From an uncultured Gammaproteobacteria bacterium (GTDB lineage: Bacteria; Pseudomonadota; Gammaproteobacteria; GCA-001735895): a stretch of 64,000 nt of DNA. Shown here piece by piece: positions 14,857 through 44,552 of the stretch (within the stretch, counting starts at the first letter, position 1; each line of letters starts with the position of its first letter). The stretch spans positions 105 to 64,104 of the forward strand of contig CAWVZP010000001.1 of assembly GCA_963934675.1 (NCBI GenBank), read 5' to 3'. The translations under genes were made by a program, and so were the position numbers. Under the pieces are notes generated by a model. That model was not told the origin of the DNA, did no database searches, and saw only the letters and a list, made by a program, of their open reading frames with translations.

Positions 14857-15825
14857 ATGTCTGTCTATACAAAAGTTGAGCCTGATGAGCTATTTACTTT
14901 CCTACAGCGCTACTCTATTGGCAAATTAATTCACTATGCCGGTATCAGTGCTGGGGTTACAAACACTAACTACTGGCTAGAAACAGAAATGGGTCAGTAT
15001 GTACTTACCCTATTTGAGCATCTTGATAGTGCAGGCCTTGATTACGTACTTGGCTTACAACATCACCTCGCGGACAAAGGAGTTAATTGCACAGCTCCAA
15101 TAGTCGACAATGAAGGACTGCTATTTTCGCCTTTAAATCACAAGCTGGCTACTATTGTTAATCGAATTCCAGGGTCTGTTTGTCGAAACCCTGCTGTTGA
15201 TCAGTGTCGCCAGATTGGCGCTGAACTTGCAAGATTTCATCTGGCTGGGCTCAGCTACAACAACCAAAAATCTAATAGTCGTGGCCTTAACTGGTGGAAA
15301 TCGATTTCTCAACAATTGCATGATGTATTAGATGACGCTGATCTAAACCTGATTGATCTGGTCATTGAAGATTTCGAACTGACTGATTTTGCCGACCTGC
15401 CACAAGGCGCATTACACGGCGATTTATTTCACGACAACGTGTTATTTGATGGCGATTGTTTGGGTGGTATTATTGATTTTGACTATGCCTGCTACGATTA
15501 TCTGGTCTACGATATTGCCGTTACCGCTAATGATTGGTGTATTGACAGTGAAGGTGCACTACTGCCAGAAAAAATGTCGGGTTTTATTGCGGCTTATAAT
15601 GAGATTAGGCTGTTACAAGCGTGTGAACTTACAGCGTTGCCAATAATGCTTGAAGTAGCGGCTTTACGTTTTTGGCTTTCTCGACTCTATGATTTGAATT
15701 TTCCGCTTAAAGGTGAATTGACCTTCGTTAAAGACCCGGTTGAGTTTAGAAAAATACTGTTATTGAGGAGAGAAAAGCCTATTTCATTTACCAACACAAA
15801 AACTGGAAAATATAGTTCCGAGTAA
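14857..15825 (+). CDS. thrB: Homoserine kinase type II (aminoglycoside-phosphotransferase-fold ThrB, Pseudomonas type)
   Basis: APH/choline-kinase fold with the brenner motif (HGDLFHDNVLF) and DFDYACYD. The N-terminus resembles Pseudomonas-type ThrB (..LxxFLxxYxIGxL..GIxxGxxNxNY). It is adjacent to polA, as in pseudomonads. The ORF-track start at 14845 is probably 12 nt too long. Confidence 0.6.
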   Translation: MSVYTKVEPDELFTFLQRYSIGKLIHYAGISAGVTNTNYWLETEMGQYVLTLFEHLDSAGLDYVLGLQHHLADKGVNCTAPIVDNEGLLFSPLNHKLATIVNRIPGSVCRNPAVDQCRQIGAELARFHLAGLSYNNQKSNSRGLNWWKSISQQLHDVLDDADLNLIDLVIEDFELTDFADLPQGALHGDLFHDNVLFDGDCLGGIIDFDYACYDYLVYDIAVTANDWCIDSEGALLPEKMSGFIAAYNEIRLLQACELTALPIMLEVAALRFWLSRLYDLNFPLKGELTFVKDPVEFRKILLLRREKPISFTNTKTGKYSSE

Positions 15826-17136
15826 ATCATCAGAGGTAAACTCGCCCGTTATTTCGTTGAGGTGTTGTTGGGTAATACGTAAGTCTTCTGCCATTAATTC
15901 GCCAGAATGTGTCTCTGTAAAAATTAAATGGGCTTGATTAAGGCTTGTTTGAGCGCTAATTAAAGCTTCCACGTGTCTTCGTCTGGCTAATATTGTCTGG
16001 TTATCTAGATTATAATCAGAATCTTTTCCAACGATTAAATCAATCAGGGCGTCGATTCCCTCTCCACTTTTGGTTGAGATAAAGTAATCACTAACTTTCA
16101 GTTCAATTGGTTTAGCGAGTAGATCTGACTTACTGAAAATTAAATGATAATTGGATGATACTAAGGCCTCGACTATTTTTTGATCGTCTGGCGTTAGACC
16201 AAGATTACCATCGACCAGCAGTATTATTGTGTCGGCTTTGTCAATTTCCAACCAAGCTCTTTTGATGCCTTCTTGTTCGACGAGGTTATCAGAGGCACGT
16301 AATCCAGCTGTATCGTTAATGCGAACAGGAATGCCTTTCAATGAAATATTTTCACGTAAGACGTCACGGGTTGTACCGGGTATTTCAGTTACAATAGCAG
16401 CTTCATATCCAGCCAAATAATTTAGTAGGCTTGATTTACCTGCGTTGGGCAAGCCAACAATAGCGACATTGAGGCCATCATTTAATATTCGACCACGTTC
16501 GGCTTGCTTAAGTAAGTTATCAAGGCTTGATCGACAGCTATCGAGTTTTTCTTGTATTGAACTATCAGCCAGAAAGTCTATTTCTTCTTCAGCAAAATCA
16601 AGTGCGGCTTCGACGTAGGCTCTTAAATAGATTAGTTCAGATACCAGATATTTAACTTGAGACGAAAATTGGCCCTCTAGTGATCGTATAGCGGCTTTTG
16701 CGGCGGCGCGACTGCCCGATTCAATCAGGTCAGCAACAGCCTCAGCTTGAGCAAGATCAAGTTTTCCGTTAAGGAAAGCACGTTCAGAAAATTCTCCTGC
16801 TCGCGCTAGTCGAGCGCCTAAAGAACAAATTCGTTCTAACAACATGTCTAGTAGTATTGGGCCACCGTGCCCCTGAACCTCTACAACATGCTCACCTGTA
16901 AATGAATGTGGAGCCTGGCTATAAATACAGAGACCATGATCAATTGGGTGGGAGGTTTCATCGAGAAACCTTCTAAACAGGGCACGACCTTTTTCTAAAG
17001 TCGTACCCGTTAAGACTTGAGCAATTTCAAGTGCACTTGGACCTGATATACGAATAATACCAATGCCACCAATACCTGGTGGTGTTGCAACCGCTGCGAT
17101 GGTTTCAACAACGGGTATTGATTTGTTGTTAAGCAT
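15784..17136 (-). CDS. mnmE: tRNA modification GTPase MnmE (TrmE)
   Basis: N-terminal [19 protein letters not shown]-domain [12 protein letters not shown] and a C-terminal ...FCVGK tetrapeptide. It sits at the conserved position downstream of yidC. Confidence 0.9.
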
Positions 17137-17160
17137 TAACTAAACGACTGTTGTTGGTGA

Positions 17161-18816
17161 TTATTTTCCACCAGATTCAATACGTTTAGTAATAACCCAT
17201 TGTTGAGCGATTGATAGCGAATTGTTTACAATCCAGTAAAGTACTAATCCAGCTGGAAAAAATGCAAAGAATATAGTAAAAACAAAAGGTAATGCCATCA
17301 TAACTTTTGCTTGAATTGGATCAGGTGGTGCAGGATTCAATCGCTGTTGTATGAACATGCTAATACCCATAATGACTGGCATAACGTAGTAAGGGTCCAT
17401 TACTGATAAATCTTGAATCCACAAAATAAAAGGCGCCTGTCGTAGGGCAACTGTTTCTAATAGAGCCCAATACAACGCAATAAATACTGGGATTTGAACT
17501 AGCATTGGTAGACAGCCACCCATTGGGTTTATTTTTTCGGTCTTATATAGTTCCATCATTGCTTGATTCATTTTCTGACGATCATCACCATGTCGCTCTT
17601 TCAATTTCTTTAAACGCGGTGCTACCTTGCGCATTCTAGCCATTGATCGATAACTGGCTTCAGAGAGTTTATAGAAAACAGCTTTGATGGTAAAAGTTAA
17701 CAGGATGATTGCTAAGCCCCAATTCCCAACATAACTATGATAAAACGAAAGCAACCAGTACAAAGGTTTAGACAGAAAGGTTAGTACGCCATAGTCCACA
17801 GTAAGATCTAGCCCCGGTGTAATTTCTTCCAGTCGCTCTACTAGTTTAGGGCCAACAAAAAATTGGCTGTTAAACTCCGCACTGCCGCCGTTAGTGACCG
17901 TTTTATTAGCAGATCGCATACCTATTGTGTAGGTCGCTGGATAACGATTTGTGCTAGAAATACTATAAACGAGGTTGGCGCCTTCTTGTGCGGGTATCCA
18001 AGCTGATAAAAAGTAATGTTGAATCATTGCTATCCAACCACCTGTCGAATTTATTTTTAGCTTTTCGTCTTCCATGTCATCAAAACTAAATTTGGTATAT
18101 TTATCTTCCTCGTTGTAATACACAGCACCCGTGTAGGTATTAATTAATTTTGATTCTGATAGTGGTCGAGTTCGTTGCAATTGGCGATATTCACTGCCTT
18201 GCCAATCGGATCCAGAATTATTTAAAACAGTATGTTCAACATTGACTAGATAGTCACCTTGGATGAATCGAAAAGTTTTTACGACTTCAATACCATCTTG
18301 GCGCCAGGTCAGCGGCACTAATAGCTCGTCGTCGCCCTGGGCCATAATGTAATTCTGTTTTTGTGACTCAAAAATACTGTGATGTGTAGGAGCGGTATTA
18401 GCTCTGTTGCGAAGGCCACTTTGCAAAATATGCACCGTATCCTTGCTACTATGTACAAGCTCAAGAAACTCATTGGGGTCGTCTAGTGTTAGTGGATATT
18501 TTTTTAACTTAACTGACCGAATGACGCCACCACGACTATCAATGACAACAATAATAACATCTGTTTCAACTGTTATAAGTGACGCGCTGGCCTGGAGTGT
18601 ATCATTTTGTATTTCAATATTTTTACTGCCCGATTGATCATCTATATCTGGCAGGTCTTCCATATTAACAAGGTTAGGTAGATCTTGATTGGAAACCTCA
18701 TTGTTACTTTGTTCAGCAATGACTGGCTGCGGGCCATAGTCAACTTGCCACTGTTGCCAAATTAACATTCCGACAAATGCGGTTGCTGCAAACAGAAATA
18801 GTCTTATATTGTCCAT
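17161..18816 (-). CDS. yidC: Membrane protein insertase YidC
   Basis: A large periplasmic domain plus the conserved C-terminal five-TM core (..GGCLPMLVQIPVFIALYW..). The start is taken at MDNIRLFLFAA..WQQW by homology; the ORF-track start at 18885 would overlap yidD. Member of the rpmH-rnpA-yidD-yidC-mnmE cluster. Confidence 0.9.
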   Translation of the reverse strand: MDNIRLFLFAATAFVGMLIWQQWQVDYGPQPVIAEQSNNEVSNQDLPNLVNMEDLPDIDDQSGSKNIEIQNDTLQASASLITVETDVIIVVIDSRGGVIRSVKLKKYPLTLDDPNEFLELVHSSKDTVHILQSGLRNRANTAPTHHSIFESQKQNYIMAQGDDELLVPLTWRQDGIEVVKTFRFIQGDYLVNVEHTVLNNSGSDWQGSEYRQLQRTRPLSESKLINTYTGAVYYNEEDKYTKFSFDDMEDEKLKINSTGGWIAMIQHYFLSAWIPAQEGANLVYSISSTNRYPATYTIGMRSANKTVTNGGSAEFNSQFFVGPKLVERLEEITPGLDLTVDYGVLTFLSKPLYWLLSFYHSYVGNWGLAIILLTFTIKAVFYKLSEASYRSMARMRKVAPRLKKLKERHGDDRQKMNQAMMELYKTEKINPMGGCLPMLVQIPVFIALYWALLETVALRQAPFILWIQDLSVMDPYYVMPVIMGISMFIQQRLNPAPPDPIQAKVMMALPFVFTIFFAFFPAGLVLYWIVNNSLSIAQQWVITKRIESGGK

Positions 18817-18829
18817 CAAATTACTCTGG

Positions 18830-19066
18830 TCAGATTTTGGCGTTAGTTGTTTTAGGTTGGGGCACAGGATCGTAACCACCGGCATGCCAAGGATGGCAAC
18901 ATGAAAGACGTTTAATGGTTAGAAATAGGCCTTTGAACACTCCATGTTTCGAGATGGCTTCAATGGCATAGTGAGAACAAGTAGGGACATAACGACAACT
19001 ACTAGCTAAAAATGGGCTTAGCAAATATTGGTAACTGCGTATTAATAAAATTAGAATCTTTCGCAT
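18830..19066 (-). CDS. yidD: Membrane protein insertion efficiency factor YidD
   Basis: 78 aa. Conserved LIRxYQxxLSPxL..CRYxPTCSxYAIEAI..G..KG..LTxKRxxxCHPxxxGGxDPVP signature. It lies between rnpA and yidC. Confidence 0.8.
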
Positions 19067-19111
19067 GGTTTATTGGCATCTTTTATCTGTAGCTATCAAT
19101 TACCTGAATTT

Positions 19112-19474
19112 TCAGGCACATCGACTAATAATGCTATTCCAGTGTTTGTCCAGACAAGCTTTTAATTTCGTGCTGTCATTTAGCAAAATTTGCTTTCGCA
19201 CCATCACAACTAGATCTCTTGCCGGTAAACGATGCTGATTTTTTCTAAAACTCTCTCTAAATACTCTTTTTAAGCCGTTTCTATTTACGGCTTTTTTTAT
19301 CTGTTTTTTTGCTATAGCAAAACCAATTCTAGGGTTTTCACTGGTATGTGCACTTACCAGAATTGTAATGCCTGCGTCGCCAAATCTATTATTTTTACTA
19401 AAAACATGCCGAAAATCTACAGCGGTTGTCAGTCTCAATTGCCTTGGAAACGATTCCTTGGCTTTATCTGTCAT
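19112..19474 (-). CDS. rnpA: RNase P protein component
   Basis: 120 aa basic protein with an RnpA-like N-terminus (FPRQLRLTTAVDFRHVF..). It lies immediately downstream of rpmH; its start is 3 bp after the rpmH stop. Confidence 0.85.
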   Translation of the reverse strand: MTDKAKESFPRQLRLTTAVDFRHVFSKNNRFGDAGITILVSAHTSENPRIGFAIAKKQIKKAVNRNGLKRVFRESFRKNQHRLPARDLVVMVRKQILLNDSTKLKACLDKHWNSIISRCA

Positions 19475-19476
19475 TA

Positions 19477-19611
19477 CTAGGGTGTTAGACGAGCTCTGCC
19501 TTTAGCTCTACGAGCTTTAATTACATTTTGGCCGCCGCTTGTTTGCATACGTGCGCGGAATCCGTGCGTTCTTGCACGCTTTAAATTACTTGGTTGAAAA
19601 GTACGTTTCAT
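19477..19611 (-). CDS. rpmH: 50S ribosomal protein L34 (44 aa). Below the ORF-track size cutoff; found by manual translation.
   Basis: The reverse strand translates to [44 protein letters not shown], a near-canonical L34 sequence, directly upstream of rnpA. Confidence 0.85.
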
Positions 19612-19739
19612 GTCTTATATCTCAGATAATTCTACTTGTCGGTTTCAACAAGGCGCGATAATGTACTTTGACGACGACTCTACGTCAACCCTTAATGTTA
19701 GTGTATTTATGAGCTATTGGTAATAGCTTAAGAACAAGC

Positions 19740-19790
19740 TGTGGATATTAATTTATTTAGCCTATCAGGCTTTGCTATGCCTGTGGATAA
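19740..19790. promoter_or_regulatory. DnaA boxes in the rpmH-dnaA intergenic region (dnaA promoter autoregulation / possible oriC half)
   Basis: A perfect TGTGGATAA (complement of TTATCCACA) at 19782-19790 and a 1-mismatch TGTGGATAT at 19740-19748, within 150 bp of the dnaA start. Confidence 0.5.
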
Positions 19791-19893
19791 GTATATTATT
19801 GTTATTCTTTATGTAATTTAAGAAAACTCTAATAAAAATATTTTTTTGCTTTCTTTCTAATTTAATTTACTACTAATAACAGGGTTTTCTATT

Positions 19894-21216
19894 TTGATCA
19901 CAATTTGGCAACAGTGTATTTCTCGGTTAGAAGCTGAGATTAGTGAACAGCAATTAAATACCTGGATCTTGCCGCTTCAAGCTGAACAAGAATTAAGTGT
20001 TCTTAAGTTGTTAGCACCCAACCGATTTGTTATGGATTGGGTTCGTAAACATTTCCTTGAACGTATTAACGAGCTAGTGTCAGGATTGGACGATAGCAAA
20101 TCAATTTCTGTCAACCTATCCATAGGTTCACAAACCAAACCAATTAATTCCGTCAAAAGTACAGGTGCTAATCAACCCGTCAAAAAAGTAAACAAATCAT
20201 CGACATTTAGCGAAACTCAGCTTTTTAGTAATTTTGTAGAGGGCAAGTCTAATCAATTGGCTAGAGCAGCTTCTATTCAAATCAGCAGTACTCCTGGATC
20301 TGATTATAATCCTCTGTACATTTATGGCGGTGTCGGTCTCGGAAAAACCCATCTAATGCATGCTATTGGAAATCAAATAAGACAAAGAAACCCCGAAAGC
20401 AATATCTTGTATGTTAATTGTGAACGCTTTGTATCTGACATGGTTAAAGCACTTCAGCATAGTAAAATGAATGAGTTTAAAAACTATTATCGTAGTTTGG
20501 ATGCTCTGTTAGTTGACGACATTCAGTTTTTAGCCGATAAAAATCGTTCACAAGAAGAGTTTTTTCATACCTTTAATTCTTTATACGAATCAAAGGCTCA
20601 AATGGTTATAACCTGTGATCGTTTCCCAAAAGAAATTGAAGGCCTCGAAGATAGAATTAGATCTCGCCTGGGGTGGGGTTTAGCGGTTGATATAAAACCA
20701 GCTGATCTTGAAACCAGAGTTGCCATACTCAACAGTAAAGCAGAGCAAGCCAACGTTTCTGTACCAGATGATGTTGCTTTTTTTATTGCCGAGCGTTTTA
20801 AGTCAAATATAAGAGAGTTAGAAGGTGCGCTTAAAAGAGTTATTGCACACGCTCATTTTACTGGGCAACGTATAACCCAAGATTTTGCTCGCCAAGCTTT
20901 GAAGGAACTTTTAGCCGTACAAGACAAACCAGTCACTATTGAAAAAATTCAAAAACAAGTTGCCGCTTATTACAAAATACGGGTTACTGACTTACTTTCT
21001 AGCAGAAGAACTCGTTCAATTACTCGACCCCGTCAATTAGCAATGAGTATAACTAAAGAATTAACCCGTCATAGTCTTCCCGAAATAGGCGGTGCTTTTG
21101 GTGGGCGTGATCATACGACGGTATTACATGCCTGTAGGAAAATTGTTGAATTACGTAATGTAGACAACCTGCTTGATGAAGATTATGAAAATATTGTTAG
21201 GCTTCTAACCAACTAA
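19894..21216 (+). CDS. dnaA: Chromosomal replication initiator DnaA
   Basis: N-terminus WQQCISRLEAEIS..NTWILPLQAE, AAA+ Walker A GGVGLGKTHL, Walker B LLVDDIQF, sensor and DnaA-box binding domain (..TDLLSSRRTRSITRPRQLAMSI..). The TTG start is as in the ORF track. Confidence 0.95.
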   Translation: MITIWQQCISRLEAEISEQQLNTWILPLQAEQELSVLKLLAPNRFVMDWVRKHFLERINELVSGLDDSKSISVNLSIGSQTKPINSVKSTGANQPVKKVNKSSTFSETQLFSNFVEGKSNQLARAASIQISSTPGSDYNPLYIYGGVGLGKTHLMHAIGNQIRQRNPESNILYVNCERFVSDMVKALQHSKMNEFKNYYRSLDALLVDDIQFLADKNRSQEEFFHTFNSLYESKAQMVITCDRFPKEIEGLEDRIRSRLGWGLAVDIKPADLETRVAILNSKAEQANVSVPDDVAFFIAERFKSNIRELEGALKRVIAHAHFTGQRITQDFARQALKELLAVQDKPVTIEKIQKQVAAYYKIRVTDLLSSRRTRSITRPRQLAMSITKELTRHSLPEIGGAFGGRDHTTVLHACRKIVELRNVDNLLDEDYENIVRLLTN

Positions 21217-21258
21217 TTTTTATGTTTTGAAATTTGCTAGAAAACTCAAAAATATTAT

Positions 21259-21457
21259 ATTTAAATTATAAACTTGTTACTTAGTTGTGGATAAGATTTG
21301 TAAAAAGACTTTCTAAAAGTTTTTTACCATTTTATTCACAATTTGTGCATAAATTTTAGACAGTTTTACTGAACTTTTTATCTTTATAAGCACCTGTTTT
21401 AATTAAATTTTCTTTTATTATATACAGATTTGGTAGTTCCTAATAACAGTAATAAAT
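21259..21457 (+). repeat. Tandem repeat unit 1 (conserved ~200-bp core) in the dnaA-dnaN spacer; carries two DnaA boxes
   Basis: TGTGGATAA at 21286-21294 and TTATTCACA at 21332-21340, then ttttagacag .. tatacagat .. agttcctaataacagtaataaat. This aligns to unit 2 at an offset of +431 bp. Confidence 0.7.
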
Positions 21458-21689
21458 GTTTTATAATAAAACTTATTGTTTTATGTCTACTTCCGACCTT
21501 TCAACTTAACCGTTAAAAATTTTTATTTAGAAATCATTAAATTTAGCTTTATATTTTTTACTCATTTTTAAAAAACCCCTTTAAATTCTCCATAATTGTC
21601 AAATATTTCTAACAAGTAATCTATGAATTAAGTCGGAACTTGATCCTTTTGTTACTGGGTCTATATTCCGGCTTATGTATATTTTTGTT

Positions 21690-21888
21690 ATTTAAATTAT
21701 AAACCTGTGCTTTACTTGTGGATAAGTCCTACAAAATATTTTTTAAATGTTTTTTTACAGATTTATTCACAATTTGTGCATAAATTTTAGACAGTTTTAA
21801 TATGTATTAAATTTTTATAAGTTTCTGTTTTAATTAGTTTTTATGATTTTATATACAGATAATGTAGTTCCTAATAACAGTAATAAAT
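21690..21888 (+). repeat. Tandem repeat unit 2 in the dnaA-dnaN spacer; two DnaA boxes
   Basis: TGTGGATAA at 21717-21725 and TTATTCACA at 21763-21771, with the same downstream conserved blocks as unit 1. Confidence 0.7.
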
Positions 21889-22109
21889 ATCTTATATAAA
21901 AAAAAATTGTTATATGTAAGATTTAACGTTTGAATTTAATTGCTAAAAATCGTACTTTTTAGAATTAAATCCTTCTAAAAGTTATTATTAATTGCCAACC
22001 CCTTTGTTTTTAGTATCACTTAAATACTAAAGTTTATTTTACCGGTAAGTTATTGTATTAATTGGCAGCCTAACCTCTGAGATACTAGGTCTGGACTCAA
22101 ATCCATGTT

Positions 22110-22317
22110 ATTTTAATAATAAAATTGTTGCTTACTTGTGGATAAGATTTGAATAATTTTTTTTGTTCTCTTTTTTACTTTCTTATTCACAATCTATGCA
22201 TATTTTTTAGACAGTATGCTAGCTTATTTATTTTATTTAAGTATTTGATATTATTCAACTTATTCTACTTTTATACAAATAACACAGTTACTAATAACAA
22301 CAGTAAGTAATATATAA
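22110..22317 (+). repeat. Tandem repeat unit 3; it ends directly at the dnaN start codon and carries two DnaA boxes
   Basis: TGTGGATAA at 22137-22145 and TTATTCACA at 22183-22191. The terminal block ..cagttactaataacaacagtaagtaatatataa is followed by ATG of dnaN at 22318, so the repeated unit corresponds to the dnaN upstream region. Confidence 0.7.
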
Positions 22318-23421
22318 ATGAAAACTATTATTAAAAGAGATGAACTACTGAAAGCCCTACAAAATGTAATAGGTGCAGTCGAAAGAAGACAAACCTTACC
22401 AATACTAGGAAATATTCTTTTTCGGGCCTCTGAAGGTGTTTTGTCTTTAACTGCAACAGATCTCGAAATAGAAATTGTTTGTATTGTTGGATCTGAGGAG
22501 GATATTCAAGATTTTCAGACAACAATACCTGCGCGGAAGATATTTGATATATGTAAGGCTTTAGGCGATGGTTCAGATATCAAGCTAACCATTGAGGAAA
22601 ACAAGGTAATTATTGTTTCTGAACGTAGTCAATTTACGTTAGCAACTTTACCTGCTAAGGATTTTCCAGGTCTAGATGATATAGAAGCACAACAAGAATT
22701 TTCAATTCCTCAGAATGCTCTCAAGTCTTTAATTGATAAAACTTCATTTGCCATGGCACAGCAAGATGTTAGATATTATCTTAATGGACTACTTGTAGAA
22801 TTATCTAAAGGTTTACTTAAACTTGTTGCAACGGATGGTCATCGTTTGGCTCTTAGTGAATATGAAGTTGATATTGATTTAGAGTTTGATAAACAGATTA
22901 TCATTCCTAGAAAAGGCGTAATGGAATTAGCGAGGTTTTTAGATAGCACCGATACACCAGTAAAGTTAATATTAAGTCAAAATCACATTAGAGTAGAAAC
23001 TGACAAGTTGTCTTTTATATCTAAACTTATTGATGGGAAGTTCCCAGATTATAATAGAGTAATTCCAATTGATGGTAATAAGTTAATGACTGTCAATAGA
23101 GAACTATTAAAAAAAGCATTAACTCGAATATCTATACTTTCTAACGAGAAATACCGCGGCATTCGTTTAACACTTGCTACAGGTAACTTGGCTATTCAGG
23201 CTAATAATCCAGATCAAGAAGAAGCAGAAGAAGAACTGTCAGTTGATTATGATGAGGCAGAAATTGAAATAGGGTTCAACGTTACTTATATTATTGATAT
23301 ATTAAATGTTCTTACTTCAGAAAATGTACAAGTTAAGCTTAAAGACTCTAACAGCAGTTGTATTGTTAGTAATGTGAGCGATCCCACCAGTTTGTATGTT
23401 GTTATGCCAATGCGGTTATAA
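22318..23421 (+). CDS. dnaN: DNA polymerase III beta sliding clamp
   Basis: 367 aa. Collinear with E. coli DnaN (..TLPILGN..LTATDLE.., RFPDY.RV, NNPDQEEAEE, VVMPMRL C-terminus). Confidence 0.95.
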   Translation: MKTIIKRDELLKALQNVIGAVERRQTLPILGNILFRASEGVLSLTATDLEIEIVCIVGSEEDIQDFQTTIPARKIFDICKALGDGSDIKLTIEENKVIIVSERSQFTLATLPAKDFPGLDDIEAQQEFSIPQNALKSLIDKTSFAMAQQDVRYYLNGLLVELSKGLLKLVATDGHRLALSEYEVDIDLEFDKQIIIPRKGVMELARFLDSTDTPVKLILSQNHIRVETDKLSFISKLIDGKFPDYNRVIPIDGNKLMTVNRELLKKALTRISILSNEKYRGIRLTLATGNLAIQANNPDQEEAEEELSVDYDEAEIEIGFNVTYIIDILNVLTSENVQVKLKDSNSSCIVSNVSDPTSLYVVMPMRL

Positions 23422-23448
23422 ATTCTTTGGTAAATATCAAAGTGAATT

Positions 23449-26930
<3,482 letters not shown>

Positions 26931-43107: not shown

Positions 43108-43384
43108 ACGACCAGAGTGTGAATATAATGCATGTTGACTTACCTTATTTAGAAAATTTCTATAAGGATAAAATATATCAGCGTTAGGCTGATTAATTTG
43201 GATAAGCAATCAGGCTAGGATTTGCTCAATTCAAAATCTGAAAAATACAACAACCCCAAGGGTTACCTCCATCAACAGGACTGAAACGTTATTTGGGGAA
43301 CACAATATATTTTGAATAAAGCAATCTGGTTGCTGAATATTCCATCCTTGCACTACCAGCCGCCACCTACTATAGTTATTCATC

Positions 43385-43485
43385 CTCAACGGGGTGCTCT
43401 TCAACCAGCGATTGCTGGCCAAAGCTGAGAGGTTTAAACACCAACCCGATGAACCTGATCCAGTTAGTACTGGTGTAGGGATGTG
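43385..43485 (+). promoter_or_regulatory. TPP (thiamine pyrophosphate) riboswitch, THI element, in the leader of thiB
   Basis: Canonical conserved blocks in order: GGGGUGC .. CUGAGA .. ACCC .. GAACCUGAUC .. GUAGGGA (ggggtgctcttcaaccagcg..gctgagagg..accc..gaacctgatccagttagtactggtgtaggga). It lies ~50 bp upstream of the thiB start. Confidence 0.85.
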
Positions 43486-43532
43486 AGCGAATCTAGTGTT
43501 GATTTCTCCCCATCTCTCTATTTATATACCTA

Positions 43533-44552
43533 ATGGAGACTTTAATGTCCATCACATCAAAAATAGCTGCGGCACTAGTGCTTAGCGCTTTTGTTTTTAG
43601 TACCGGCTTTGCTGCAAAGCCAACACTCACCGTTTATACCTATGATTCGTTTACGAGCGATTGGGGCCCTGGCCCGCAGATTAAAAAAGCATTCGAAGAA
43701 ACCTGCAATTGCACCCTGGCACTGGTTGGTTTAGAGGATGGTGTTTCATTACTAAACCGTCTAAAATTGGAAGGAAAAAATACCAATGCTGATGTTGTTT
43801 TAGGTATCGATACCAACCTGACGGCTGATGCTAGAGCGAGTGGTCTATTTACAAAACACCAGCTGCCAATGACAAAGTCTACTCTCCCACAGGTATGGAA
43901 AGACGATACTTTTCTACCTTATGATTATGGTTATTTCGCATTTGTTTATAATTCAGAGCTATTGAAAAATCCACCTACAAGTCTGAAAGATTTAGTAGAA
44001 AATGACAACGGGCCGACGGTCTTAATTCAAGACCCACGCACCAGCACGCCAGGTTTGGGCTTGTTGCTTTGGATCAAAAAAGTCTATGGAGATAAGTCCG
44101 ATGAGGCTTGGAAGAAACTATCTCCACGAATCGTAACCGTCAGCAAAGGCTGGAGTGAAGCTTATGGTCTTTTCCTCAAGGAAGAAGCCGAGATGGTTTT
44201 AAGCTACACCACATCACCGGCCTATCACATTATTGCCGAAGACGATAAACGCTTTGCTGCAGCAGAATTCTCCGAAGGCCATTATCAACAAATTGAAGTA
44301 GCCGGACTAGTGGAAGCCAGCCAACAGAAGGCATTAGGTCGTCAGTTTTTATCGTTTATGCAAGATGAAAAATTTCAGGCAATCATTCCTACGACTAACT
44401 GGATGTACCCCGCCGCTTTAGCCAAAACAAGCTTGCCTGAAGGTTTCAACGAATTGGTTCAACCAGCAACAACGCTTATTTTCACTGAAGATAGTATCGA
44501 AAAGAACCGAAAAAAATGGGTCAATGAGTGGTTAGAGGTCATGTCTGAGTAA
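43533..44552 (+). CDS. thiB: Thiamine ABC transporter periplasmic binding protein
   Basis: Near-collinear with E. coli ThiB/TbpA (KPTLTVYTYDSFTSDWGPGP.., ..DPRTSTPGLGLLLW.., ..SYTTSPAYHI..). It follows a TPP riboswitch. The start is possibly MSITSK, 12 nt later. Confidence 0.9.
   Translation: METLMSITSKIAAALVLSAFVFSTGFAAKPTLTVYTYDSFTSDWGPGPQIKKAFEETCNCTLALVGLEDGVSLLNRLKLEGKNTNADVVLGIDTNLTADARASGLFTKHQLPMTKSTLPQVWKDDTFLPYDYGYFAFVYNSELLKNPPTSLKDLVENDNGPTVLIQDPRTSTPGLGLLLWIKKVYGDKSDEAWKKLSPRIVTVSKGWSEAYGLFLKEEAEMVLSYTTSPAYHIIAEDDKRFAAAEFSEGHYQQIEVAGLVEASQQKALGRQFLSFMQDEKFQAIIPTTNWMYPAALAKTSLPEGFNELVQPATTLIFTEDSIEKNRKKWVNEWLEVMSE

Follow-up and report, generated by a model that had tools for sequence, protein, structure and literature searches.

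The 1.1-kb spacer that separates dnaA from dnaN (21217-22317) in the 64-kb stretch of DNA analyzed here (the window) is a tandem array built from the lineage's own dnaA-dnaN intergenic region. This compact DnaA-box region is of origin type by prediction in related bacteria, and in one marine lineage it has been multiplied from one to three units. The spacer itself is ordinary for the clade; only its multiplication is unusual.

A tandem array between dnaA and dnaN

A repeat search returned one family with three 229-nt copies (21258-21486, 21689-21917, and 22109-22337), the second and third being 78% and 65% identical to the first and spaced by 431 and 420 bp. Tandem Repeats Finder did not report the array because its copies are too diverged. 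The initial annotation had described three tandem units of about 425 bp. The repeats themselves were recovered at nearly exact coordinates, but the real make-up is two full units, each consisting of a core and an inter-core segment of ~190 bp, plus one core (Table 1). As the initial annotation noted, the spacer is AT-rich (GC 22%, 78% AT), and its only open reading frame of at least 40 aa is a spurious 53-aa frame with a TTG start.

The 64 kb contain 12 perfect TTATNCACA boxes, whereas 3.6 would be expected and none of 100 shuffles gave more than 7; 8 of the 12 fall in the spacer. Together with three one-mismatch boxes, this gives three to four DnaA boxes per unit. The pair of boxes previously recognized in each unit is real: box1 and box2 are perfect in all three units and start 46 bp apart, with 37 nt between them. 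An inverted box absent from the earlier list matches the consensus perfectly in units 1 and 2 and is degenerate in unit 3, and units 1 and 2 hold six of the eight perfect boxes of the array. A further box with one mismatch, box3, lies 86 bp past box2 in each unit. The conserved blocks reported after the boxes, TTAGACAG and AGTT(C/A)CTAATAACA..., are likewise present in every unit, whereas unit 3 is the only one in the array with a perfect IHF consensus. Multiplication of the region upstream of dnaN was also confirmed, as homology in both upstream units extends ~18 nt into the dnaN coding sequence, where the ATG is destroyed. The duplicated segment ran from ~25 bp past the stop codon of dnaA into the coding sequence of dnaN, taking in 18 nt of it or more; the ~190 bp that follow have since decayed.

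Table 1. Position and content of the features in and around the dnaA-dnaN spacer.
Feature	Position	Strand	Description
rpmH-dnaA gap	19612..19893	.	282 bp; divergent rpmH and dnaA promoters
dnaA	19894..21216	+	440 aa, TTG start; Pfam DnaA_N, Bac_DnaA, and Bac_DnaA_C on 91-99% identical orthologues
Unit 1 core	21217..21465	+	repeat, box, block, and alignment evidence
Unit 1 box1	21286-21294		TGTGGATAA
Unit 1 box2	21332-21340		TTATTCACA
Unit 1 inverted box	21344-21352		TGTGCATAA, perfect
Unit 1 block	21356-21363		TTAGACAG
Unit 1 IHF position	21387-21399		TAAGCACCTGTTT, degenerate
Unit 1 box3	21418-21426		TTATATACA, one mismatch
Unit 1 second block	21440-21456		CTAATAACAGTAATAAA
Unit 1 dnaN remnant			decayed copy of first ~18 nt of dnaN
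Inter-core segment 1	21466..21653	.	~188 bp, AT-rich, no boxes, fast-evolving; nhmmer profile match 21465-21652
Unit 2 core	21654..21896	+	repeat, box, block, and alignment evidence
Unit 2 box1	21717-21725		TGTGGATAA
Unit 2 box2	21763-21771		TTATTCACA
Unit 2 inverted box	21775-21783		TGTGCATAA, perfect
Unit 2 block	21787-21794		TTAGACAG
Unit 2 IHF position	21818-21830		TAAGTTTCTGTTT, degenerate
Unit 2 box3	21849-21857		TTATATACA, one mismatch
Unit 2 second block	21871-21887		CTAATAACAGTAATAAA
Inter-core segment 2	21897..22083	.	~187 bp, homologous to segment 1; profile match 21896-22082
Unit 3 core	22084..22317	+	orthologue of relatives' single-copy spacer
Unit 3 box1	22137-22145		TGTGGATAA
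Unit 3 box2	22183-22191		TTATTCACA
Unit 3 inverted box	22195-22203		TATGCATAT, degenerate
Unit 3 block	22207-22214		TTAGACAG
Unit 3 IHF site	22238-22250		TAAGTATTTGATA, perfect consensus
Unit 3 box3	22269-22277		TTTTATACA, one mismatch
Unit 3 second block	22291-22307		CTAATAACAACAGTAAG
Unit 3 tail			AT-rich, running into dnaN start
dnaN	22318..23421	+	367 aa; first ~18 nt within duplicated segment

It is barely credible that the array is a repeat mis-expanded during assembly, a possibility raised when it was first described. In the lineage with 96% DnaN identity, all six contigs read stop within the array, 15-858 bp upstream of dnaN, showing that short-read assemblers struggle at this place. 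However, the units diverge by 19-35% from one another, which lets reads be placed uniquely, and the two-unit form was found again in several independent contigs. In addition, two independent metagenome assemblies from different samples (L087 and L088, 97% DnaN identity) carry the same three-unit spacer of 1142 bp with two positions differing.

The inter-core segments are most simply guessed to be a decayed 5' fragment of dnaN. Local and semi-global alignment to the dnaN 5' and dnaA 3' ends found nothing past the first ~18 nt of dnaN, and nhmmer profiles built on the 3' ends of dnaA and on positions +18 to +318 of dnaN gave no match to them. A likeness to the dnaA 3' end seen by eye returned p = 0.05-0.98 in a focused test. 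A profile of the segments themselves matches only the same segments, in the window and in its 96-97% relatives, and neither anything else in the window nor the segment of the two-unit lineage L089; a dispersed mobile element was rejected on these grounds. No tRNA was found in the window, and the spacer had no Rfam match at E ≤1.

Relatives with one, two, and three units

The initial annotation took dnaA and dnaN to be normally adjacent, which is true only of Pseudomonas- and Halomonas-type genomes. Among 164 gammaproteobacterial dnaA-dnaN loci surveyed, 66 have a long spacer (at least 150 bp), and DnaA boxes are present in most of these. Where the spacer is long (median 222 bp, two perfect boxes), the median rpmH-dnaA gap is 293 bp, with one box; for the 98 short spacers (median 46 bp, no boxes) it is 546 bp, with two boxes. 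Lineages with a long spacer have a short rpmH-dnaA gap with two promoters, and in Pseudomonas-type genomes the arrangement is reversed.

Many Gammaproteobacteria share a fixed layout, in which a reverse DnaA box is followed by a forward box 46 bp on, an IHF consensus and a third box respectively 55 bp and 86-100 bp past that forward box, the TAATAACAACAG block, an AT-rich tail, and dnaN. The IHF consensus is perfect in 27 of 56 distinct long spacers, mostly in this same register. In the clade of the window, the single-copy spacer has in addition a weak box adjoining the forward box and an inverted box 3 bp after it, and its third box is forward, 86 bp past the forward box, with the TAATAACAACAG block 14 nt further. 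Box3 is a perfect TTATCCACA in distant relatives and has one mismatch in the clade of the window. Since the TAATAACAACAG block keeps a constant 14 nt to box3 and a variable 15-55 nt to the dnaN ATG across relatives, it belongs to the box module and not to the translation start.

A single unit makes up the entire dnaA-dnaN intergenic region of relatives (249-260 bp). The comparison with related genomes that had been proposed as a check did reveal single units, within a nested series: one unit in six lineages with DnaN 79-83% identical to that of the window, two units in a lineage at 84% (771-bp spacer), at least two in a lineage at 88%, and three in the lineages at 96-97% and in the window. These close relatives came from exact-protein look-ups; a scan of metagenome contigs found no relative above 73% DnaN identity. 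The multi-unit lineages cluster together in a neighbor-joining tree of DnaA and DnaN, which carries no support values. The series arose by two successive tandem duplications, which gave first two and then three units. Units 1 and 2 share derived states such as GTAGTTCCTAATAACAGTAA with the upstream unit of the two-unit lineage L089, and the CAGTTACTAATAACAACAGTAAG variant is common to all terminal and single units, unit 3 included. It follows that the first duplication is an old one and that the upstream copies have not been overwritten by the terminal copy.

DnaA boxes and conserved blocks persist in the extra cores, and the DNA between the cores has been randomized. Between the window and L089, identity at the four-fold degenerate sites of dnaA is down to 0.48, with synonymous sites near saturation. 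At this distance the upstream cores still align at z = 6-8, against z = 0.2-1.8 for the inter-core segments. Named elements of the upstream cores are 85% identical vs. 58% for the sequence between elements, and orthologous terminal units give 86% vs. 62%; there is some circularity in this contrast, as part of the elements were themselves delimited on this alignment. The DnaA boxes had been fixed in advance, and all three are retained at 86-100% identity. It is distinctly unlikely that units 1 and 2 are no more than leftovers of duplication without a function, alike through recent origin or gene conversion and not through selection, and that only unit 3 matters. Such leftovers would fit the loss of the IHF consensus from units 1 and 2, the destroyed ATG of the copied dnaN start, and the identity of the cores to those of a 97% relative (81-87%), which is about that of the dnaA four-fold sites (0.81). 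They would not be expected to keep all three boxes, nor to match the upstream core of L089 when inter-core DNA of the same age can no longer be aligned and four-fold sites are 48% identical. Homogenization by unit 3 is also at odds with upstream-specific derived states that cross lineages, and with the inverted box, which matches the consensus perfectly in both upstream units and is degenerate in unit 3.

Candidate origin function and its alternatives

On balance, the array is probably one enlarged, iterated candidate origin region. Of the functions put forward initially, an origin is the best supported, as a prediction, by the conserved architecture of the unit, its complementarity with the rpmH-dnaA gap, the origin predicted in Thioalkalivibrio, and an rpmH-dnaA gap filled with promoters. 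In Thioalkalivibrio sulfidiphilus, oriC was predicted in the 251-bp dnaA-dnaN spacer, the rpmH-dnaA gap being 193 bp (Weigel 2025, bioRxiv 10.1101/2025.08.05.668638). The gene order rpmH-dnaA-dnaN-recF-gyrB and a short rpmH-dnaA gap (193 vs. 282 bp) are common to this species and the window, and its box-bearing spacer of ~250 bp corresponds to one window unit and to the 187-315-bp spacers of many surveyed loci. However, T. sulfidiphilus has a single copy that is itself only a predicted origin, the window has three copies in 1.1 kb, and we infer the match of individual elements from other relatives.

The rpmH-dnaA gap is taken up by divergent promoters in the window and in all long-spacer relatives. 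It does hold two boxes, as first described, one of them perfect (19782-19790) and the other with a single mismatch (TGTGGATAT, 19741-19749). The perfect box lies between a -35-like TTTGCT and a -10-like TATATT of the dnaA promoter, which is predicted to be autoregulated, and this layout, a single TGTGGATAA followed by gTATAnTAT, is kept in 16 relatives. With 282 bp and one perfect box, the gap does not have the features of a Pseudomonas-type oriC1 (~520-600 bp, a box array, and an unwinding element by rpmH). An Escherichia coli-type oriC, with a GATC cluster and 13-mers by R1, was not found either: the 1.1-kb spacer contains one GATC (21642), and Dam/SeqA-type control was rejected for this reason.

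Several properties listed as origin criteria (Weigel 2025, section 2.2.12, bioRxiv 10.1101/2025.08.05.668638) are found in the array, starting with three to four DnaA boxes per unit. The criteria ask for an R1-oriented consensus box some two helical turns away from the unwinding element, and box3 (TTWTNTACA, one mismatch) takes this place: in every unit it precedes the TAATAACAACAG block by 14 nt and the AT-rich tail by ~25-35 bp. After unit 3, the gene beside the predicted unwinding element, dnaN (+), points away from it; on the tail side of units 1 and 2 there is no gene, only the decayed dnaN start. The basal unwinding pattern (Pelliciari et al. 2021, PMC8287927; a box with at most two mismatches, 0-16 bp, at least three NAN, box strand TGTGNATAA) is formally present but near-uninformative at 78% AT. 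On the minus strand it reads TAT TAG TAA (unit 3) or TAT TAG GAA (units 1 and 2), 10 nt, and then TGTATAAAA or TGTATATAA; AAT-NAT-AAA, 13 nt, and then box1 likewise fits the NAN test, and the distant relative L043 misfits on the same strand.

The same criteria describe the unwinding element as 20-50 bp of AT-rich DNA that superhelical stress destabilizes. Ease of opening was estimated by a rough calculation, a home-made single-bubble approximation of superhelical-stress destabilization and not the published SIDD program. It placed the easiest-opening DNA of the 19-24 kb region at 21734-21931, and also pointed to 21513-21575, both inside the array. Five of six single-unit relatives (L093, L096, L179, L002, and L016) opened at the 3' end of the spacer and the dnaN start, and the distant single-unit relative L043 between the second and third boxes. 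The criteria also place an origin at the minimum of cumulative GC skew. Skew was rejected as evidence for or against an origin because within the window it tracks gene orientation. GC and AT skew at four-fold sites follow the coding strand, and windowed total skew is flat before ~22 kb and rises from there. Moreover, the two candidate gaps are 1.3 kb apart, so GC skew cannot separate them.

In the proposed mechanism, the single unit would be the chromosomal origin of the clade, of dnaA-dnaN type, in which DnaA would assemble on the boxes, IHF would bend the DNA, and the AT-rich tail beside dnaN would open. Unit 3 may represent the complete ancestral module, as it is the sole unit keeping the IHF site. 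Units 1 and 2 would then be selected auxiliary modules for DnaA assembly. Their tails are AT-rich and appear at least as easily unwound, so that these units could raise local DnaA occupancy or be opening sites themselves. Having lost the IHF consensus, they may be incomplete origin modules.

It is rather doubtful, although conceivable, that the array is instead a tandem set of three origin modules under long selection, in which units 1 and 2 are alternative DnaA-dependent opening sites or a built-in DnaA buffer by which a slow-growing marine bacterium times initiation. For alternative opening, the AT-rich tails of units 1 and 2 would have been freed from encoding dnaN. We regard as unlikely a reading in which the spacer multiplies a control region of dnaN (a promoter/operator repressed or timed by DnaA and IHF, of which duplication would have stacked further copies), with replication starting elsewhere. 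The unit does lie directly upstream of dnaN, the duplication takes in the dnaN start, and the CTAATAACA block is also present 13 nt upstream of the dnaA start. The box between -35 and -10 of the dnaA promoter means that DnaA-dependent control of transcription exists in this genome, and mnmG lies outside the 64-kb window, so the true origin could lie elsewhere, e.g., beside that gene. Against this reading, the TAATAACAACAG block keeps its distance to box3 and not to the dnaN ATG. No convincing conserved sigma-70 promoter was found (15 promoter-like matches vs. 14.2 expected); counts in the promoter and terminator scans were at chance level, and the dnaN promoter was not placed. Three boxes in rigid register, an IHF site, and an easily unwound terminal tail are origin architecture, and complementarity with a long rpmH-dnaA origin gap would be unexpected for a mere promoter.

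A specialization of the upstream units as an origin-side DnaA buffer, by datA-like titration or inactivation or by DARS-like nucleotide exchange in place of unwinding, seems very unlikely. To our knowledge, datA and DARS systems have been characterized only in E. coli. Like datA, DARS1, and DARS2, the units are non-coding clusters of three to four DnaA boxes near the (candidate) origin, and the divergence from unit 3 at the IHF position is common to four upstream units. There are three or four strong boxes in units 1 and 2, including an opposed perfect pair, and such a pair is the hallmark of DARS cores (PMC6868365). In these cores, however, opposed boxes I and II have a 5-bp space between them and box III is adjacent in the direction of box II (PMC6868365), whereas the opposed pair here is 3 bp apart, with 86 bp to the next box; a DARS-like role, as once suggested, fails on this arrangement. 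The datA locus combines a single IHF site with three or more DnaA boxes at defined distances and stimulates DnaA-ATP hydrolysis (PMC10380432). The suggested likeness to datA is partial: unit 3 fits, with the only box-flanked IHF consensus (also a conserved part of the single-copy spacer), but units 1 and 2 lack the required site. An IHF site is present in datA and DARS2 and absent from DARS1. Both datA and DARS are defined by biochemical activities.

Comparison with known origins

The enlarged candidate origin region proposed here resembles the Bacillus subtilis oriC (incC), which also places an origin-type region between dnaA and dnaN (PMC6669920, PMC8287927). Both have boxes, a short spacer, NAN repeats, and an AT-rich region by a dnaN transcribed away from it, although the trio match in the window is formal only. 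In B. subtilis, additional upstream box clusters assist the core, as proposed for the window. Those clusters are located upstream of dnaA and do not duplicate the core, whereas the auxiliary modules of the window are core paralogues, and the window array has an IHF site, unlike the B. subtilis oriC. We know of no Streptomyces origin made of recognizable tandem copies of a complete module. The Streptomyces oriC occupies about 0.9-1 kb between dnaA and dnaN and has about 19-30 DnaA boxes (quoted in bioRxiv 10.1101/2025.08.05.668638). It is like the window in the unusual length of this region and its many boxes, but the array has about 11 strong boxes in three clear paralogous units, and Streptomyces DNA is GC-rich.

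Bacterial chromosomes are taken to have a single replicator, Pseudomonas aeruginosa being the only documented exception with oriC1 (rpmH-dnaA) and oriC2 (upstream of mnmG), which are not duplicates of each other (bioRxiv 10.1101/2025.08.05.668638). Pseudomonas and Halomonas carry this second origin type next to mnmG. In P. aeruginosa, as in the window, more than one origin-type module of boxes and unwinding element is found on one chromosome, close together (~5 kb). There, genes lie between the two, whereas the window modules, paralogues of recent date, follow one another at 420-431 bp without an intervening gene, and the rpmH-dnaA gap of the window is not origin-like, unlike oriC1. A tandem duplication that gives two oriC copies per chromosome is DU1 of Mycobacterium bovis BCG Pasteur (PMC2448323). 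DU1 covers about 30 kb with many genes and arose recently in laboratory passage; the multiplication in the window involves only the ~430-bp origin-type spacer, is old, spans several natural lineages, and has conserved boxes.

The array suggests a different route to a complex origin, in which a complete compact origin-type module is copied in tandem. Were all three modules selected as origins, a bacterial chromosome replicator would have evolved by copying itself. Related lineages still have the stages with one, two, and three units, and conservation extends to the DnaA boxes of the added copies. Such a series offers a natural experiment on the number of DnaA-box modules that an origin requires or can tolerate. 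It could show how long many-box origins arise, and whether a duplicated module keeps initiation or becomes a DnaA-buffering element. For annotation of uncultured Gammaproteobacteria, a rule can be proposed by which a dnaA-dnaN spacer of ~190-315 bp (median 222) with the order box-46 bp-box-IHF-box goes with a short, promoter-only rpmH-dnaA gap.

Low GC at the four-fold sites of dnaN, recF, and gyrB was considered as a consequence of the triplication and rejected, because single-unit relatives are low in dnaN too (0.19-0.21), with recF and gyrB less low.

Organization of the dnaA-dnaN array

A repeat search of the window returned three 229-nt copies between dnaA and dnaN, at spacings of 431 and 420 bp; the second shares 78% identity with the first, and the third 65%. 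The initial annotation had described three tandem units of about 425 bp. Three copies at such spacing are indeed present, but the array is made of a core plus about 190 bp, twice, and then one core continuing into dnaN, and therefore of two full units and a single core. The window contains 12 matches to TTATNCACA (3.6 expected), eight of them inside the spacer. The reported pair of consensus DnaA boxes was recovered in every unit as TGTGGATAA followed at 46 bp by TTATTCACA, and all three units have a one-mismatch box 86 bp past the second box. Units 1 and 2 carry an inverted TGTGCATAA 3 bp beyond TTATTCACA. Homology of these upstream units to unit 3 extends about 18 nt inside dnaN, the ATG being lost in the upstream copies, which agrees with the proposal that the region upstream of dnaN was multiplied. 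The end of unit 3 is a micro-tandem repeat with 2.5 copies of the 16-mer TACTAATAACAACAGT (TRF, 83% matches); units 1 and 2 carry a version 3 nt shorter.

Assembly artefact had been raised as a concern, and the array proved to be real. The units diverge pairwise by 19-35%, and a relative whose DnaN is 97% identical shows the same three-unit architecture, in a 1142-bp spacer, in two metagenome assemblies made independently (L087, L088). Contigs of the 96% lineage stop within the array, yet include two cores and two inter-core segments; all six contigs read (L081-L086) stop 15-858 bp upstream of dnaN. Short-read assemblies evidently break inside the array, and unit number may thus be under-reported in MAGs.

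Coordinates of features in and around the dnaA-dnaN region
Feature	Position	Strand	Remark
mnmE, yidC, yidD, rnpA, rpmH	15784-19611	minus	
dnaA promoter	19741-19800		-35-like TTTGCT, -10-like TATATT
Perfect DnaA box	19782-19790		between -35-like and -10-like elements
CTAATAACA	19873-19881		13 nt upstream of dnaA TTG start
dnaA	19894-21216	plus	
AsdA match (Rfam)	20323-20404	minus	within dnaA coding region
dnaA-dnaN spacer	21217-22317		non-coding, 1101 bp
Unit 1, unit 2, unit 3 (cores)	21217-21465, 21654-21896, 22084-22317		
Repeat copies, 229 nt	from 21258, 21689, 22109		
Micro-tandem repeat	22274-22312		unit 3 end
dnaN	22318-23421	plus	followed by recF, gyrB (plus)
AT-rich segment	26931-27927		about 1 kb, no ORF; gyrB to M3 peptidase gene
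TPP riboswitch (RF00059)	43380-43499		upstream of ORF
ORF	43533-44552		

Single-unit relatives and duplication history

Comparison with related genomes, as the initial annotation had advised, revealed a single unit where DnaN is 79-83% identical: the whole spacer is 249-260 bp and aligns end to end with unit 3. It consists of a reverse consensus box, a T-tract with a weak box inside, a forward box 46 bp past the reverse box, TTAGACAG, the IHF consensus YAANNNNTTGATW 55 bp past the forward box, a third forward box 86 bp past the forward box, CTAATAACAACAG 14 nt after the third box, and an AT-rich tail ending at the dnaN ATG. Far more distant Gammaproteobacteria (Thiohalobacter, a Thiotrichaceae MAG and the Olavius Gamma 3 symbiont group) keep this register, with a perfect TTATCCACA as third box. 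A perfect IHF consensus occurs in 27 of 56 distinct long spacers (150 bp or more), mostly in the 55-bp register and in one orientation. In distant long-spacer relatives (L043, L048, L064, L031, L166) the reverse box begins 1-12 nt past the dnaA stop; here it is preceded by an added stretch of roughly 65 nt, specific to this clade, that contains the conserved ACTAGGTCTG...CATGTTATTTTAAT.

One unit is found in six lineages. The 84% lineage has two (771 bp) and the 88% lineage two or more, while the window has three, as do the 96-97% lineages. Multi-unit lineages cluster in a neighbour-joining tree of DnaA and DnaN (computed without support values), and among 66 long-spacer loci tandem multiplication is confined to this clade. 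In the two-unit lineage (L089), the upstream unit has derived states in common with window units 1 and 2, the other state being present in all terminal or single units; the first duplication thus predates their split. The increase to three units came from a second duplication, which copied a core along with an inter-core segment.

The extra copies appear to be constrained, because their cores can still be aligned when the window is compared with the two-unit lineage (z = 6-8, versus 0.2-1.8 for inter-core segments) and their named elements are conserved, despite just 48% identity at dnaA four-fold sites. A profile search with the inter-core segments did not recover that of L089. Upstream cores are 85% identical in named elements and 58% between them, and orthologous terminal units give a like contrast (86% versus 62%). 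In the three-unit lineage the IHF consensus was lost from the extra copies (TTGAT to CTGTT, four upstream units). These copies keep a perfect inverted box, which unit 3 does not have.

Location and nature of the putative origin

The 164 loci compared fall into two classes. Long-spacer loci (66) have medians of 222 bp and two perfect boxes in the spacer, and 293 bp and one perfect box in the rpmH-dnaA gap; in the 98 short-spacer loci, which include Pseudomonas, Halomonas, Cellvibrio and others, the medians are 46 bp and no box, and 546 bp and two boxes. The short-spacer arrangement matches the rpmH-dnaA origin known from Pseudomonas. The rpmH and dnaA promoters fill that gap in the window and in its relatives, and the dnaA promoter has its single DnaA box between the -35 and -10 elements. 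In T. sulfidiphilus, oriC was predicted in the 251-bp dnaA-dnaN spacer, the rpmH-dnaA gap being 193 bp (Weigel, bioRxiv 10.1101/2025.08.05.668638). Of the five prediction criteria used there, box, orientation, array and, formally, trio are recognizable in the unit. The unwinding element was assessed by our own single-bubble approximation, which, for five of the six single-unit relatives, placed opening at the end of the spacer next to dnaN. For the window it placed opening inside the array, most strongly within unit 2, in its 3' half. Skew at four-fold sites of the window tracks the coding strand and is uninformative on the origin. The origin could instead adjoin mnmG, a gene outside the window, beside which Pseudomonas and Halomonas have another origin type.

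Judging from sequence, it is moderately likely that the array is an origin region of the dnaA-dnaN type that has been enlarged. On this reading unit 3 would be the ancestral module in complete form, with units 1 and 2 as selected modules for DnaA assembly. We infer from these patterns both origin function and the binding of DnaA and IHF, as well as the role of units 1 and 2. Of the other readings offered initially, a DARS-like locus does not fit the box arrangement, and a datA-like locus fits unit 3 but not units 1 and 2. The nearest precedents each differ in kind from the array: the Thioalkalivibrio origin is predicted and single-copy, B. subtilis has a dnaA-dnaN core with auxiliary boxes, Streptomyces has an origin of about 1 kb, the two Pseudomonas origins are unrelated to each other, and the two oriC copies of BCG stem from a recent 30-kb duplication.

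The dnaA promoter and genomic surroundings

The position of its DnaA box suggests an autoregulated dnaA promoter, whose cTTTGCtatgccTGTGGATAAgTATAnTAT arrangement is kept in relatives down to 50% DnaN identity. CTAATAACA, the first part of the conserved unit-end block, has four of its five window occurrences at unit ends or upstream of dnaA; in L089 a perfect DnaA box takes its place upstream of dnaA. The match to AsdA, an antisense RNA of dnaA mRNA in Salmonella, is sub-threshold (33.6 bits, gathering score 52, E = 2.4e-4) and may merely reflect dnaA sequence conservation.

The DnaN homologues belong to uncultured marine Gammaproteobacteria; among those with a name the nearest, at 80% identity, is labelled Candidatus Azotimanducaceae (order Pseudomonadales). 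Four-fold-site GC is 0.20-0.24 in dnaN, recF and gyrB (22318-26930), versus 0.31-0.51 in most other window genes. It is equally low for dnaN in single-unit relatives (0.19-0.22; L089, L093 and L096 also examined), and is therefore not due to triplication. The AT-rich segment after gyrB may represent decayed genes or another non-coding element; its position is taken by LemA and GIDE-domain genes in the single-unit relative L093, by only about 78 bp in another (L096), and by a gap of about 1.5 kb in L089. The TPP riboswitch scores 62.1 bits, above its gathering score.
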